In this document: positions 6,573-46,071 of the stretch, in pieces
Position numbering within the stretch: position 1 is the first letter of the stretch
Layout of the letters: each line of letters opens with the position of its first letter
Virus record (IMG/VR): IMGVR_UViG_3300001528_000699
Span: 1 to 64,000 of that record
DNA length: 64,000 nucleotides
Direction: 5' to 3' (one strand)
Origin: a virus
Taxonomy: Duplodnaviria; Caudoviricetes
Translations under genes and position numbers: made by a program
The notes under the pieces: generated by a model
Told to the model about the DNA's origin: nothing
Database searches by the model: none
What the model saw: the letters and a program-made list of their open reading frames with translations, nothing else

Positions 6573-6603
6573 ATAAACTTTGTGTATCTTTACAGTGTTG
6601 AAA
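6572..6603 (+). promoter_or_regulatory. Phage promoter GATAAACTTTGTGTATCTTTACAGTGTTGAAA
   Basis: Same core as the 18.86, 27.63 and 34.48 kb copies. Confidence 0.75.
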
Positions 6604-21427: not shown

Positions 21428-23115
21428 AATATTTTTACATAGAGAAAACATACATTTACGTCGGATTTAAATACGACCCATCTATCGTATCCCTTCTGAA
21501 GGAGATAGGTGGGTTCTTTTTCAATCCTCAAACAAAAGAGTGGTACAGGGAGATCTCTCTTGATAAAGGGAGTTTGATTGAAAAATTTCTTCGAGAAAAT
21601 GGGTTTGAAAATAAAAGACCTGAGCCGAGAATCGATAACCTTGAATTACCCGTTTACAAGGATGTGATTTCAATAGAGGATACAAAAACGCTGATAGAGG
21701 AACTCCACCTAAAACGAAAATTGAGGGATTATCAGGTAGAGTGCGTTCATTATCTTGCGAATCATGTCAATTCGATTAACGGTTGCTCTCCGGGTCTGGG
21801 AAAGACGGGGATCTCTGTGGTTTTAACTGAAATGCTCCAAATGTTTCCCTGCTTGGTTGTCACACCCGCTTCAGTGAAATACGGTTGGAGAGCTGAGTGG
21901 CAGAAATGGGTTGACCTTCGAAAGAGGAAAGTTCAGGTTATCGAAAGCAAGGATAAGTGGAAGCCGAATCAGGATGTTTATATCATAAACTACGATATAT
22001 TGTATAAGAAGGATAAAGAGAGTGGCGTTCAGGTTAGATTCCCTGAATTACTGGAAACAGAGTGGGAGGCTATGTTCTTGGATGAAGCGCATATGTGCAA
22101 GAACAGGAAGAGCTTGCGAAGCGAATGGGTGGCGAGAGTGGCGAAGAAATCCCAATTCGTCTATCCTTTAACGGGAACCTTGGTTATGAATAGGCCGTCC
22201 GAGTTGATAAATATATTGGAGATAACGGGGTGGTTCAAAGAATTATTTCATGATTGGCAATCCTTTGTTTACAGGTATTGTAACGCGAAACGAAGGTGTG
22301 TGAACGGCCAACTTTTCGGGTGGGATATATCATGTGCCAGTAACACGCTTGAGTTGAATAAGATTATATCGAACGCTTGTTATTTCAGAAAAGAGAAGAG
22401 AGAGGTTCTGACTGAGTTACCACCTATGATTGAGAACACCGTTCCCGTTCATATCAGCAACATGCGAGAGTATAAGAAAGCGGAGGATAGTTTGATAGAG
22501 TACTTGGAAAAGATTGATATCGAAAAAGCGGAAAAAGCGGAAAACGCCCCTCATCTGGTTAAATTGAGCACATTGAAAGATCTGTCCTTGAAGGGAAAGA
22601 TGAAGGATATTGAAGTCTTCCTTAATGAATGGAAGGAAATATCGGAGGAGAAACTTCTTGTGTTTGGCGTTAGGCGAGAACCTCTAAAAAAATTGGCGGA
22701 TAAATATGACAGCCCTCTTATTCAAGGTGGTATGTCATCGAAAGATAAATTCGGAACGGTTCAAGCGTTTAAAACAAGTTCGAAGCAATTTCTTTTCGCT
22801 AACATAGACGCGGTTGGAACCGGGGTGGATGGATTGCAGGAATGTTGCAGTAATTTAATGTATATAGAATTACCTGATAAATTTACCACGTTGGATCAGA
22901 CAAATTCCCGGCTGGAGCGAATGGGGCAGAAAAATACGATTAACGTGTTTTACCTTCTGTGTCCGGATACGATCGATGTTTATATGGCGGAGTTAGTCGA
23001 GGAAAAGAAAAAGGTTACTGACGCTATTAATAAAGGAGTTGACGTGGATGTTAGTGGCATGGATGTTAATTTCATGCTGATGAAAAAGTTAAGATCGGCG
23101 AAGAATAATAAGTGA
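21424..23115 (+). CDS. SNF2-family helicase
   Basis: LRDYQ, PGLGKT, LDEAH, LTGT, RLERMGQ. Confidence 0.9.
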   Translation: MKYFYIEKTYIYVGFKYDPSIVSLLKEIGGFFFNPQTKEWYREISLDKGSLIEKFLRENGFENKRPEPRIDNLELPVYKDVISIEDTKTLIEELHLKRKLRDYQVECVHYLANHVNSINGCSPGLGKTGISVVLTEMLQMFPCLVVTPASVKYGWRAEWQKWVDLRKRKVQVIESKDKWKPNQDVYIINYDILYKKDKESGVQVRFPELLETEWEAMFLDEAHMCKNRKSLRSEWVARVAKKSQFVYPLTGTLVMNRPSELINILEITGWFKELFHDWQSFVYRYCNAKRRCVNGQLFGWDISCASNTLELNKIISNACYFRKEKREVLTELPPMIENTVPVHISNMREYKKAEDSLIEYLEKIDIEKAEKAENAPHLVKLSTLKDLSLKGKMKDIEVFLNEWKEISEEKLLVFGVRREPLKKLADKYDSPLIQGGMSSKDKFGTVQAFKTSSKQFLFANIDAVGTGVDGLQECCSNLMYIELPDKFTTLDQTNSRLERMGQKNTINVFYLLCPDTIDVYMAELVEEKKKVTDAINKGVDVDVSGMDVNFMLMKKLRSAKNNK

Positions 23116-41310: not shown

Positions 41311-42135
41311 CTAGTAAGTTTGCACGAGTTCATCTTTCAATTCAACGTTCAATAATTCATGGAGGAACTTCCTACCTTTCTCGGTCCAAACGGTTATGGT
41401 CTTGCTCCAAGTACCACCGCTATTGTTCTCCCCGGTAGATGTACGGGTCTTCGTGTACCCTTTATCGCAATAAGGGGCGGTTAGCATCCATGAACCGGAT
41501 TGGGAGAACATCACTTTCATATCTTTTAACCTCTGGTGAAGGGTAACGGCGGATCTCATCCCCAATTCTTTCGCGATCTGGGTGGTGGTGTAGGTGGTCG
41601 GAGCGTTCAGGGTTGATTTAACGTATTTCACGTCCGGTGCCTGCTCGATCAGCTTACCCATCATGTTATGATTTTCTCTCGTTTTCTCCTCTAGTAATTT
41701 CTGTTGTTTCTCGTTTTCTGCTTGTAACCTCTCCTTTTCCTCTTCCGCCTCTATCACCATCATCGCGAGTTCTTTTCTTGACAGGGTGTTGTTAACGGAT
41801 TTGTGAAATACCTGCCTGTACACCTCGAACACGGCTCTTACTTTTCTAGCTACAAGAAATTCAAGACAGGAAACAGATATATGATATTCGTTTGATGGTC
41901 TTCCTCCTAGAGGGTTTTCCCAGTTTTTGAGGAAAACTTGATAATCAACACCTTCCATAAACTTTTCAGATAAATCTCTAACAGCATGATCCTTTCTATT
42001 ATAGGCTAGTGGCCATACATCATCAAGATTTACCGGGAACTCCTCGTTCATTTTTGATAACTTTAAAATTGAATTGAAATAATCTCTTATCTCATTCTCT
42101 CCACTTTCTTTTGATAAAATTAATTTCGTTGTCAT
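41311..42135 (-). CDS. Phage antirepressor (AntA-like N-terminus plus KilAC C-terminus)
   Basis: FPVNLDDVW...GGRPS.EY...; TTTQIAKELGM...WTEKGRKFL. Confidence 0.8.
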   Translation of the reverse strand: MTTKLILSKESGENEIRDYFNSILKLSKMNEEFPVNLDDVWPLAYNRKDHAVRDLSEKFMEGVDYQVFLKNWENPLGGRPSNEYHISVSCLEFLVARKVRAVFEVYRQVFHKSVNNTLSRKELAMMVIEAEEEKERLQAENEKQQKLLEEKTRENHNMMGKLIEQAPDVKYVKSTLNAPTTYTTTQIAKELGMRSAVTLHQRLKDMKVMFSQSGSWMLTAPYCDKGYTKTRTSTGENNSGGTWSKTITVWTEKGRKFLHELLNVELKDELVQTY

Positions 42136-42169
42136 ATCTTCTTATTTTTAAATTTTCAGGCATAGGAAA

Positions 42170-42296
42170 AGCGACTGCCATATTGCGCTTGCTAACAGAT
42201 CTAGAATAGAGATCTTCGCAATAGGCGGTCGCTTGTATTTTAATGTTGGGATACTCAAACCACTATCTAAAACTCTATTCCATGTTATCTGTTAGC
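42170..42296 (-). promoter_or_regulatory. Structured leader with alternative pairings (c4/CI-like) upstream of the antirepressor
   Basis: 42273-42296 complementary to 42191-42211; 42217-42233 complementary to 42170-42187; TACCTTTA box at 42301-42308. Confidence 0.6.
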
Positions 42297-42353
42297 GATG
42301 TAAAGGTAAAAACAATTTTTGAATAAACAAAATTTATCATCACTATTTTCAAA

Positions 42354-42509
42354 TTAAATTTTTACCGTTTTATTCTTTCCGCATCTCTCGCAATAATACA
42401 CCTCGATCGTGTAGCGTAATTTCCCGTTCACGAAACACTTTTGCACCTCACAAAGCCTGTAATCATGTTTACAGAATAATCTCTTGAGGAATAATCTTAT
42501 TCTTCCCAT
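42354..42509 (-). CDS. Small zinc-ribbon protein (51 aa, not in ORF track)
   Basis: MGRIRLFLKRLFCKHDY...YYCERCGK. Confidence 0.65.
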   Translation of the reverse strand: MGRIRLFLKRLFCKHDYRLCEVQKCFVNGKLRYTIEVYYCERCGKNKTVKI

Positions 42510-42871
42510 TCTACCGGAACTGTGACGATGTAATTTTCCGGATCACCAATATTCCTTTTTGCTTCTTCTTCGGTTGCGTATGGGTTTAGACCTCCGAATG
42601 ATCTAACGTGACTACCAGAATACTCACTGTACACGTTTACCCACACCTTTCTTTTCTCGCCAATCATCATGAGATCCAAATCATGATTCCCTTCTCTTCC
42701 ATCGAGATTATAAAACAACGCCGCTTCCTGTTTCTCGCTCAGTTTAACCAACGCTATTATCGGGGTGTTTTCAAGCGAAATAAAATCATAACACAATATT
42801 CTAACCGGCCTACCATCCCTCGTGCAAACAGGTTTGCCTTGTTTCGCGAGTTCAATATCAAATTTCTTCAT
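42497..42871 (-). CDS. Hypothetical protein, paralog of 29483..29845
   Basis: GKPVCTRDGRPVRILCYD...VEWEE. Confidence 0.75.
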   Translation of the reverse strand: MKKFDIELAKQGKPVCTRDGRPVRILCYDFISLENTPIIALVKLSEKQEAALFYNLDGREGNHDLDLMMIGEKRKVWVNVYSEYSGSHVRSFGGLNPYATEEEAKRNIGDPENYIVTVPVEWEE

Positions 42872-42883
42872 CTTCCTTTATTT

Positions 42884-43660
42884 TTATTGTTTATAGTTAT
42901 TATCTTGATCAACCACGTCAAACACTCTCGCCAGGAAATCTAACCCTCTCTGGGTTACCAGAACTTTCAAAACGGTGAACCCGTCGTAGTAGGAGCGATC
43001 GATCCATTTCTCCTTCATAACGAAGTAACCCCGATCCACGTATTCTTGCTTGGGTTCATTTCGACTGGCGAAGAAGATACCTCTATCTCTCAATTCCTGG
43101 AAAAGGGTGTTCCTACCGAAAGGTAATTGGAGCAGCTTGGCGGCTTGACCTATATCGACGAGCTCGTCAGAATCCATCACCTTCTCCATGAGTTGAGCTT
43201 TAGGTTTCAAAACCTTGTTTTCCTCTTCCAGCTTCATTCTCGCCTCCCTTTCCTCCTTTAATTTCTTAGCTAACCCTATAACCAGATCAGGGTTGAGAAT
43301 GATCTCTTCTAGCTTTTCGGGTGTTGCTGTCATGCCGTATTTTAGTAATTCTTTCATCCTATCATTACACCAAATGGCGAAAGCGGGTGATAGCCATCTC
43401 GCGAACTCCATCGCTACATCTTCATGAAGCCACGTACCTGAATTATTACCACCTTTTGTAACTTGCACTAAATCAGCCAAAGGGATTTTTCTCCCTTTGC
43501 TTAAAACATTTAAAAACTCTTTTGTTTGATCTGTTTTAAGCCAATCTTTCGTAACTTTACCGAAAGGTTTCGCCATCTCGGTGGCGTTTACCATCAATCC
43601 GTTCTCATCACTCGCGAAAGTGATATCAGTTCCGTTATAATTAAAAATTTTATTTTCCAT
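42884..43660 (-). CDS. KilA-N plus KilAC antirepressor-like protein
   Basis: MVNATEMAKPFGK...GTWLHEDVAMEFARWLSPAFAIWCN; GRNTLFQELR...PKQEYVDRGYF...VTQRG. Confidence 0.88.
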   Translation of the reverse strand: MENKIFNYNGTDITFASDENGLMVNATEMAKPFGKVTKDWLKTDQTKEFLNVLSKGRKIPLADLVQVTKGGNNSGTWLHEDVAMEFARWLSPAFAIWCNDRMKELLKYGMTATPEKLEEIILNPDLVIGLAKKLKEEREARMKLEEENKVLKPKAQLMEKVMDSDELVDIGQAAKLLQLPFGRNTLFQELRDRGIFFASRNEPKQEYVDRGYFVMKEKWIDRSYYDGFTVLKVLVTQRGLDFLARVFDVVDQDNNYKQ

Positions 43661-43682
43661 GTTTATACCCGTTATAATCGAT

Positions 43683-44192
43683 TTATTTTTCTTTCTTGAG
43701 CAAATATATCGAGGTGTAGTTTTCTCTCGGTCCACTCTTTTCCATCGCTTTTAAAATCTTGCTTAGGGCCAGTTTTCCATCCTTGTCATCGATAACGAGA
43801 ACGTCTTTCTTGGTCATGTAATAGTTACATGTATCAACTGACTGGCTGCCGTAGGTTTCGTTATTGAAGATGAACTTTCCTTTCCCGTTAAACACGCCGA
43901 CCTCGACCCATTTATCCCTGTTCCACTTGAAATCGGTGGTCAGAACCGCCTTCCATTCCCCTCTCGGGGTGGCGATAAGTTTGAGGGTGGCCGAGATAGC
44001 CGATTCCTTGTAGGTGAACGTGCTATCCCGATTGTTCACGTCATACGCTCCTATATAGAGATGCTGGTAGGAGCCTTCATCGACCTTGTACTTGCCCTTG
44101 CACTCGTACCATTCATTATACATGCTCGAACCCATTGAAATGAAGGATGCGATTCCTAGCACGACAACTAATATCCAAATTAACGCTTTCAT
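43683..44192 (-). CDS. Membrane-anchored protein, paralog of 44215..44700
   Basis: N-terminal TM; shared GKGxFI, DTC.YY, VI.DK.G.L.L and Y..IY.LKK. Confidence 0.7.
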   Translation of the reverse strand: MKALIWILVVVLGIASFISMGSSMYNEWYECKGKYKVDEGSYQHLYIGAYDVNNRDSTFTYKESAISATLKLIATPRGEWKAVLTTDFKWNRDKWVEVGVFNGKGKFIFNNETYGSQSVDTCNYYMTKKDVLVIDDKDGKLALSKILKAMEKSGPRENYTSIYLLKKEK

Positions 44193-44700: not shown

Positions 44701-44740
44701 AATTCTCTTGTTTTTAAAATATTAATAATTTTGTTCTGTT

Positions 44741-44775
44741 TCAACGATGTAAAGATACACGTTGTTTATTTATCA
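44741..44775 (-). promoter_or_regulatory. Phage promoter TAAAC-AACG-TG-TATCTTTAC (minus strand)
   Basis: Reverse complement matches the repeated motif; drives the lipoprotein operon. Confidence 0.75.
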
Positions 44776-44836
44776 TCCAAATGTTTTCGGAGAAAAGTTT
44801 GATGGATAAGATCTATCAAATCAAATTGGATGTAAC

Positions 44837-44925
44837 GGTAAAACACCCTTCGCATTGATTACAAGGATGTTTTACCACATTGAGAGTTTATTCCCATTTT
44901 GGAATAAACTCTCATAATCAATGTG
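44837..44925 (-). other. Double-hairpin structured element
   Basis: Stems 44837-44850/44863-44876 and 44881-44894/44901-44914. Confidence 0.65.
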
Positions 44926-44931
44926 TTCATA

Positions 44932-45243
44932 TTACTTTTCTTCACTCTCATCCTTTCTTCTTCTTTTCCTTTTAGGACACAGTACATCTTGGATCTCATC
45001 TATCTCTTTCTTGATCTTTTTGGCTTGGAGAGATAGGGTTCTTACCTGTTCATTTATCTCGTCTATCTCTTTTTTGCGCTTGTTGTATGCTTCTCTTAAA
45101 GTAATCGTTTCCTCGCATTGATCAAGAGCGGCGGATTCAAGGGCGGCATCACGAACCATTTCAGTTAAATTTTTGTATTGCCTGATTTTCCTTCCCAATT
45201 TTTCCTGTAATTTTAATTTCTCATCATCTTGTAAAGTGTTCAT
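44932..45243 (-). CDS. Hypothetical coiled-coil protein
   Basis: ORF overlapping the upstream gene. Confidence 0.6.
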   Translation of the reverse strand: MNTLQDDEKLKLQEKLGRKIRQYKNLTEMVRDAALESAALDQCEETITLREAYNKRKKEIDEINEQVRTLSLQAKKIKKEIDEIQDVLCPKRKRRRKDESEEK

Positions 45244-45811
45244 AATCTAATAATTTATCGGTTACATATAATATATTTGTTCTGTTTGTCGGCTTGATAT
45301 TGATCAAACCTTTATTGTATAATTTGTTGATATTTATTCTCATTGAATTTCTACTGACCATTCCTAACTTACCGGCTATAGTTTCATTCGCCCAATTAAA
45401 TTCCTTTCTGTCATAAAAATAGGATACAACCAGCGCGATGACATATAGCTGTGTAAAATTTAATTTATGGACTTTGTTTAGCGAGAATAACCAAGTTGGG
45501 AATGATAAATAGGTTTCATTGTTTTCGGCGATAAGCGTTTTTCTTAGCAGCCATTTATCGTTTTCCATTTGAAATTTCCTCGATTCATTATCCCAGAAAA
45601 GAATGTCGTTATATTTTTTGATTAAAATATTTAATTGCGGATATGAATACACAGATAATTTAGAGTACTGAAGAAGAAAATCACGCCTACTTTTTACTTT
45701 TATCTCGGTTTGAAGGGTAAGGATTGATGATATAAAGAACTCGCCTTCCAGCGTTAGCCCTAACTTTGAATAGTCATAATTATAAATAAGAATATTTCTT
45801 CCTTTTTTCAT
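45224..45811 (-). CDS. Winged-HTH protein, possible replication initiator
   Basis: LNFTQLYVIALV...WANETIAGKLGMVSRNSMRININKLYNKGLI; adjacent to iteron-like repeats. Confidence 0.55.
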   Translation of the reverse strand: MKKGRNILIYNYDYSKLGLTLEGEFFISSILTLQTEIKVKSRRDFLLQYSKLSVYSYPQLNILIKKYNDILFWDNESRKFQMENDKWLLRKTLIAENNETYLSFPTWLFSLNKVHKLNFTQLYVIALVVSYFYDRKEFNWANETIAGKLGMVSRNSMRININKLYNKGLINIKPTNRTNILYVTDKLLDYEHFTR

Positions 45812-46071
45812 AAGAGTGTCAAGTTAAATCTAATCGAATTTTGGAAATGGCAACATCCAGCGATTAGAAGGCTGACAAAACCTATGAAACCAGAAATTGC
45901 CATTTCCAACTGTAAAAATACGATGAAATTTTTGGATAAACAACAAATATACAAAGTTTATTTAGAAAATCGCTCCAAAATGACCGAGTAAAAAGGTTGT
46001 ACATATAAATATTGGGTAAAAAAGTCACCACAGCAATCCCAAAAATGACCGAACAAAAACAAGAAATTTAA

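Follow-up and report, generated by a model that had tools for sequence, protein, structure and literature searches.

A predicted c4-type two-state RNA in the leader of an ANT/KilAC-domain gene of an SPO1-like Bacteroidota phage

The stretch analyzed here (the window) comprises positions 1 to 64,000 of IMG/VR virus record IMGVR_UViG_3300001528_000699, a record that is complete at 99.5 kb with terminal repeats. The portal of this phage is SPO1/Twort-like, with its nearest matches in Chryseobacterium phage MA9V-3 and the Bacteroides thetaiotaomicron DAC/SJC myoviruses, and on that ground an assignment to the crAss-like phages was rejected. Nothing in the carrier phage shows a sign of a temperate lifestyle. 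On the minus strand lies a gene, referred to below as ant, for a 274-aa protein with a C-terminal ANT/KilAC domain (Pfam PF03374, E = 6e-21; PHROG 63, "anti-repressor Ant," E = 5e-29). The relatives of this protein are all in Bacteroidota genomes, and its label as an antirepressor is annotation only. The same operon contains a second ANT-domain gene (KilA-N plus ANT, 283 aa; 42884-43735, minus strand) ~600 bp upstream, which has no c4-type element of its own. The features of the ant leader are as follows.

42300-42331, minus strand: promoter, consisting of TTTG, a 19-nt spacer, the TACCTTTA box, and a C
42308-42301, minus strand: the TACCTTTA box
42296-42287, minus strand: box a1 (10 nt; perfect complement of a'), located at the transcript's 5' end or close to it
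42280-42273, minus strand: box b1, 8 nt; perfect complement of b'
42235-42272, minus strand: spacer from b1 to the core, its sequence unconserved between the two cassette types in the alignment and folds
42234-42167, minus strand: c4-type core RNA, ~68 nt, made up of stem B/B', an inner hairpin, a linker, and U4
42233-42217 (B) and 42187-42170 (B'), minus strand: closing stem, 17 pairs with three single-base bulges
42215-42197, minus strand: inner hairpin of 6 bp (arms 42215-42210 and 42202-42197) with a 7-nt loop
42211-42204, minus strand: b', the hairpin loop plus 2 nt of the 5' arm
42200-42191, minus strand: a', comprising 4 nt of the 3' arm and the single-stranded linker after it, with a conserved AGCA at its end
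42170-42167, minus strand: U4 tract after stem B'
42136-42166, minus strand: A-rich segment between the core and ant, with neither a promoter box nor an a2/b2 target
41311-42135, minus strand: the ANT/KilAC gene ant, 274 aa

Promoters of the kind that precedes the leader recur throughout the window. The pattern TTTG-N17-22-TAYYTTTAC occurs 5 times against an expectation of 0.13, and TAYYTTTACA occurs 10 times against 0.79 expected (for example, at 6585, 18879, 27646, 37493, 44748, and 45911), in both cases always on the coding strand. Promoters in the Bacteroidota are of the −33/−7 type, and the ant promoter appears to be a phage variant of that type in which the final G of the −7 box is replaced by A. 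The strict Bacteroidota form, TTTG-N-TAnnTTTG, was rejected as the form used by this phage, being present at chance level where the variant ending in TTTAC is enriched. The TACCTTTA box is separated from a1 by 4 nt (3 nt by the (T/C)GCT reckoning used for the family described below), and b1 lies ~40 nt from the core. The ant start, on the same strand as the core, is 31 nt past the U-tract and 34 nt past stem B'. The stretch from the core to the ant ATG contains no promoter box, and transcription of ant must therefore run through the core. Short upstream open reading frames (ATG-GAA-TAG between a1 and b1, and one with its ATG at 42163) were dropped from consideration, being unconserved in the sister phages.

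Other structured leaders lie in this part of the genome. One, at 45800-45960 (minus strand) in the same minus-strand cluster, precedes a 195-aa gene (45811-45224) and has a promoter of the same class as that of ant, with a shared GTTTATYCAAAAATT block and a TATTTTTA box. Behind the promoter come a perfect 13-bp inverted repeat and, interleaved with it, a second stem extending to the start codon; in L053/L054 this region is 80 to 83% identical, and it has no homology to the c4-type core. At 44731-44940 (minus strand), between a 103-aa gene and a TATCTTTAC promoter, are two long hairpins (−63 kcal/mol over 210 nt), in a region that is 83 to 86% identical in L053/L054. The transcript from the TATCTTTAC promoter begins with CATCG, as does the ant leader.

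An earlier note on this DNA, made from the letters of the sequence, had described a TACCTTTA box followed by a bipartite leader part (A) and, downstream, a stem B/B' that encloses a hairpin and leaves exposed two hexamers complementary to the two parts of A. All of these elements are present on the minus strand where the note had placed them, and the two hexamers turned out to be the cores of longer perfect complementarities of 8 and 10 nt, the b1:b' and a1:a' pairings of our feature list. When folded alone, the core reaches −27.1 kcal/mol (z = −4.7), a value that none of 200 shuffled sequences equaled. The core is single copy in the genome. The ordered bipartite a1/b1 target occurs once in the 99.5 kb, as does its complement, and a reversed control pattern does not occur at all. 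The single bipartite site, the z score of the fold, and the preservation of the pairings by compensatory changes in relatives place the ant leader element beyond chance.

The closed core described in the note is the fold of the core by itself; the minimum-energy fold of the full leader is instead an extended duplex between a1b1 and b'a', at −38.0 kcal/mol, compared with −33.2 kcal/mol when the core is enforced. The duplex was favored over the core-enforced fold by 5 to 11 kcal/mol in four independent variants (the window, L003, L023, and L045). Only 3 nt separate a' from B', so that the a1b1:b'a' duplex and stem B/B' are mutually exclusive, and exclusive helices together with the duplex preference in four variants make the leader a genuine two-state RNA. 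In the closed state, the core would be folded and terminator-like, with the antisense boxes exposed; in the extended state, a1b1 would be paired with b'a' and B/B' would be open. It is in our view very probable that selection maintains this element and that it is genuinely a c4-type RNA with two states.

Three viral contigs (L002, L003, and L004) with portals 93 to 98% identical to that of the window phage carry the same locus, and a scan of viral contigs with the promoter pattern returned only these three sister phages. A Blast search with the leader did not find the element in phage relatives with 61 to 87% identical portals. A 60-bp promoter block is 98% identical in L002 and L003 (59/60 in L003/L004). 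In L002, 15 leader positions differ from the window and no helix is broken, the changes in both hairpin arms giving G-U pairs. In L003 and L004, the leader between the promoter and the segment before the ATG is 43% identical to that of the window, and the segment before the ATG (42136-42166) is 76% identical even though the leader upstream of it has been swapped. The folds of L002 and L003 have the same core architecture despite the sequence divergence of L003, in which five B/B' pairs differ from the window, all of them compensated on both sides. Moreover, a1/a' and b1/b' change together in L003/L004, generating a different specificity in which the new b1:b' pairing uses G-U pairs; the U-tract is interrupted in these two phages. 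Covariation in homologous leaders, which the earlier note had proposed as a check, was therefore found, with the fold and both pairings kept through compensatory changes. By analogy, the L003/L004 leader looks like an exchanged specificity cassette, resembling the heteroimmunity of P1 and P7.

Two side observations concern the coding sequences of these and related contigs. The ant frame of L002 (3001-3648) ends after 215 codons, and tblastn similarity extends to residue 272, so that the early end may be a frameshift or an assembly error. L003 (3076-3087, 12 nt) and L045 (3107-3116, 10 nt) contain perfect complements to the b' region within the coding sequence of the ANT domain, ~610 to 640 nt past the core; the window has no equivalent, and these complements may be due to chance.

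We looked for a second target (a2/b2) near the ant start by scanning for exact complements and found none of at least 7 nt in the window, L002, L003, or L004. In a downstream duplex scan, the best duplex was within the background range, as was a weak site at about +130 (−16 kcal/mol). A genome-wide duplex scan ranked the leader's own a1/b1 first (−27.0), only slightly better than chance sites (−25.7); the next-best sites, at 21781 and 70417, are inside open reading frames and were judged to be chance. Genome-wide, one-mismatch matches to a1 were equal in number to those of the reversed-pattern control. Since a2 is missing, any effect on ant has to be indirect, and without a2/b2, the mode of action of c4, a translational block, cannot apply in the window.

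An Infernal search against the c4-type models of Rfam, also suggested in the earlier note, left the window RNA unmatched, even at E ≤ 10. Rfam C4 (RF01695) gave no match in the window at the gathering threshold, none in 41900-42600 at E ≤ 10, and none in L001, L003, L023, or L045. Rfam c4-2 (RF02944) gave no match in the window even at E ≤ 10, nor any in L003, L023, or L045; as positive controls, L036, L043, L049, L051, L025, and L027 matched this model at 47 to 55 bits (cutoff, 41 bits). No other Rfam family, c4-a1b1 included, matched 41900-42600 at E ≤ 10, apart from one chance small RNA match on the other strand. The proposal that a switch analogous to P1 c4 and P4 CI operates here is partly supported: the design, the bipartite pairing, the covariation, and the family kinship favor it, and neither an Rfam match nor the downstream a2/b2 target of c4 is present. 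The evidence for kinship is that distant relatives of the element bear a target at the start codon and that neighboring copies are Rfam c4-2 RNAs, members of the c4 clan.

These relatives came to light through R1, a covariance model built from the core. Because the window is among the sequences on which R1 was trained, its own R1 score is uninformative. R1 found significant matches directly upstream of ANT-domain genes in unrelated 30- to 75-kb viral contigs, with independent matches in L023, L045, and L022 (E = 2e-6 to 5e-5), and two modules in a Porphyromonas gingivalis prophage (phage023a_KCOM2797, BK068104.1, near 40.8 and 42.1 kb; E = 3e-8 and 9e-7). Together with a pattern derived from its matches, it yielded ~80 relatives in Bacteroidota phages, Porphyromonas prophages included; the pattern, built on the conserved stems, found 69 copies in IMG/VR with 16 different interiors. 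R1 gave no match among 51 bacterial ant loci, a result for which the model is too narrow to allow absence to be concluded.

In 65 of the 69 relatives found by pattern, a1 lies ~95 nt upstream and a2 lies 25 to 39 nt downstream, where it overlaps the next gene's start codon; the sequence around a2 spans two ATGs, the second 12 nt after the first. In 60/60 distant relatives, exactly 3 nt separate the end of a TAnnTTTG box from a1, and the geometry of the window is the same: a −7 box, 3 nt, an a1 that begins with (T/C)GCT, an AGCA before the 3' arm, and U4-5. We rejected the idea that the U-tract of the window is weaker than those of its relatives because R1-type relatives have U4-5. In the alignment of stem B/B', 94.7% of cells were paired and 11 of 15 pairs were changed on both sides, compared with 15 to 43% of cells paired in slid controls, although the alignment was fitted to the R1 model, which inflates the pair counts and somewhat favors structure. 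Across 16 loci, leader-core duplexes had a mean of −28 kcal/mol for cognate combinations versus −11.4 kcal/mol (standard deviation, 4.6) for noncognate ones.

Four cores were orphans, with no cognate site within 1.5 kb, and stood in tandem behind an Rfam c4-2 copy. L025 (2251-2600), L027 (1398-1740), and L028 have arrays of three different c4-like RNAs in tandem before one ant gene, in the order Rfam c4-2 copy, R1-type core without a cognate target, promoter, and third core type, the last of which has an a1 of its own and an a2 that takes in the ATG. The orphans of these arrays have specificities that match a2 sites not of their own phages but of other phage types. In L023, L036, L045, L006, L086, and L091, the spacer between a1 and the core contains a hairpin that is conserved across otherwise different leaders and whose 3' side reads T5-7-ATGCC. 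This hairpin, which the window clade does not have, may serve for early termination or for processing. Finally, in the P. gingivalis prophage locus L199 (BK068104.1, 40748-40918), a coding sequence for a "hypothetical protein" has been annotated across an R1-type leader RNA, from a1 to the core; it is probably not a gene.

The c4 RNA of P1 and P7 is processed by RNase P into a free RNA of ~77 nt that represses in trans. Its immI locus is arranged in the order a1 b1, c4 (a' b'), a2 b2, icd, and ant (Rfam C4, RF01695; PMC12197685). Like c4, the window element is a small RNA closed by a stem and encoded within an antirepressor gene's leader on the same strand, its two exposed boxes complement a bipartite site upstream in the same transcript, and box specificity differs between closely related phages. 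Unlike c4, it has no Rfam match, no a2/b2 on the downstream translation start, and no icd-like open reading frame, and the host phylum of its phage is the Bacteroidota. Use of Shine-Dalgarno sequences is rare in that phylum. We conclude that the window RNA is c4-type by design and context, without an Rfam match and without a second target at the ant start.

The c4-2 RNA (RF02944, clan CL00128; Weinberg et al.) is a motif found by bioinformatics (PMC5737381). It occupies the same niche: in L036, L043, L049, and L051, the cores are flanked by a1 on one side and, on the other, by an a2 at the ant start, and a c4-2 copy directly precedes the R1-type core in L025/L027. Both c4-2 and the window core have a closing stem, a U-tract, and an AG(C/g)A immediately ahead of the 3' arm. 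Where c4-2 has two inner hairpins, the window core has a single one and a 9-nt linker; its stem sequence also differs. As judged from sequence, the window core defines a family separate from c4-2, to which the 69 relatives found by pattern belong.

The CI RNA of P4 (seqB) has target sequences both upstream (seqA) and downstream (seqC) and controls premature transcription termination. The window RNA is like CI in that it would be cut from the leader of the operon that it controls, has an upstream target there, and has termination as its read-out (which we infer here), and by analogy we would regard P4 CI as the closest functional counterpart of the form without a2. Unlike P4, with its seqC, the window yielded no downstream copy of the target, and no sequence or Rfam relationship between the two RNAs was found. 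In pT181 and pIP501, an antisense RNA binds an early antiterminator segment of the leader and lets a terminator hairpin form. As in such attenuation, the small RNA would bind an early antiterminator segment of the ant leader, but unlike the pT181 and pIP501 RNAs, which come from the opposite strand, it would be the terminator hairpin itself and come from the same strand. The sar RNA of P22 is a small RNA that limits antirepressor synthesis, being a cis-encoded antisense transcript that overlaps the ant start (PMC12197685). Like sar, the window RNA would limit an antirepressor, and their architectures are unrelated.

Taken together, these results suggest a c4-type two-state leader that acts as a trans-fed, self-reinforcing switch before ant, an explanation to which, taken as a whole, we give about an even chance. 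In a naive transcript, the leader would adopt the extended fold, the B/B'-plus-U4 hairpin would be prevented, and RNA polymerase would read into ant. Core RNA that termination at U4, or processing, had set free earlier would pair in trans with a1/b1 of nascent leaders. The nascent core would then close, and transcription would stop, or the RNA would be cut, before ant. With ant off, more core RNA would be made, so that the switch would reinforce itself. We infer both the trans action and the termination or processing read-out, and the specific mechanism of trans attenuation is accordingly put forward tentatively, as somewhat less than an even bet. It resembles, by analogy, the action of P4 CI on seqA and antisense attenuation in pT181, and it fits the missing a2 because no translational target is needed. 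The U-tract, which is only U4 in the window and is interrupted in L003/L004, makes the efficiency of termination uncertain.

The main rival explanation is a two-state leader that works purely in cis, a single 5' untranslated region with alternative folds and no free antisense RNA. The choice between folds would be set by kinetics, temperature, a protein, or RNase access and would determine whether the ant mRNA is terminated or processed, or how stable it is. This explains the window's own sequence equally well: in each of the four variants, the intact leader has the cis duplex as its minimum-energy fold, the 99.5-kb genome nowhere holds a second target, and a1 lies right at the 5' end, so that its pairing could govern 5'-end-dependent decay. 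It nevertheless gives no reason for a swap of specificity boxes between near-identical phages and leaves unexplained the cores of relatives that have no cis partner, and trans-acting c4-type RNAs have as their hallmark a stable closed core that presents its boxes in a loop and a linker. The orphan cores and the cassette swap point, at the level of sequence, to trans-acting specificity, and we regard regulation purely in cis as possible but rather doubtful.

A bolder form of the trans-fed switch would have a c4-type RNA that has lost its translational target become a self-reinforcing, RNA-only attenuator, in which the terminator hairpin is the trans effector that removes its own antiterminator. 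The carrier would be a presumably virulent SPO1-like myovirus whose exchangeable cassette reads, or interferes with, the c4-type immunity RNAs of resident prophages. We think this combination unlikely. Cross-talk between phages could also be the main function of the element, the core silencing ant-type mRNAs of resident temperate phages whose start codons bear the same a box or the a1/b1 leader sensing or sponging a c4-type RNA made by a prophage. The window a' has 11 nt in common with the a' of phages of the L023/L138/L146 type, whose a2 sites at the start codon would give 9 to 10 bp with the window RNA; the orphan cores of L025/L027/L028 match a2 sites of other phage types; and an SPO1-like carrier has no obvious need of an immunity of its own. 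The common box may, however, reflect mere common descent, as these phages are the best R1 matches, only the a box and not the b box is in common, and the pairing that covaries in the sister phages is with a1/b1 of their own leader. We consider cross-talk as the main function decidedly improbable.

That the leader is a decaying relic, a module from a temperate phage that lost a2 and retains no regulation, would account for the absence of a2 from the window clade when it is present in 65/69 relatives, and for the absence of the element from more distant myovirus relatives (portals 61 to 87% identical). Both cassette types, on the other hand, keep the stem, the hairpin, and both pairings, with five stem pairs compensated, and the 15 leader differences of L002 break no helix. 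An element acting at the level of DNA, with inverted repeats at the ant promoter that bind a protein or mediate looping, has in its favor that these repeats, 86 bp apart, adjoin the highly conserved promoter block, but the G-U pairs in the stems and in b1:b' are valid only in minus-strand RNA, R1 scores 88.5 bits on the minus strand versus 21.9 bits on the plus strand, and, unlike in operators, the box sequences vary freely while complementarity is kept. (A scan for w..rc(w)..w triples is blind to strand, the pattern being mirror-symmetric.) Because of the compensated changes and the G-U pairs, both readings are unlikely: the relic very much so, and to the DNA-level element we give next to no credence.

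The c4-type RNAs are textbook examples of RNA-based phage immunity, and to our knowledge, experiments on them have been confined to P1/P7 and P4 of enterobacteria. What is new in the leader described here is a sequence family outside Rfam, a form with the upstream site only, a cassette swap in near-identical phages, and an SPO1-like myovirus as the carrier. The element belongs to a large c4-like family, absent from the Rfam catalogue, in Bacteroidota phages of the gut and mouth, and the R1-type family reaches prophages of cultured P. gingivalis. This family shows an unusually clean three-way covariation among the RNA, the 5' end of the leader, and the start codon. The window keeps only the upstream site, and the long-unexplained function of a1/b1 is therefore separable from the translational block. 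If the RNA acts in trans, the cassette swap would point to RNA-coded specificity in competition between phages in the gut.
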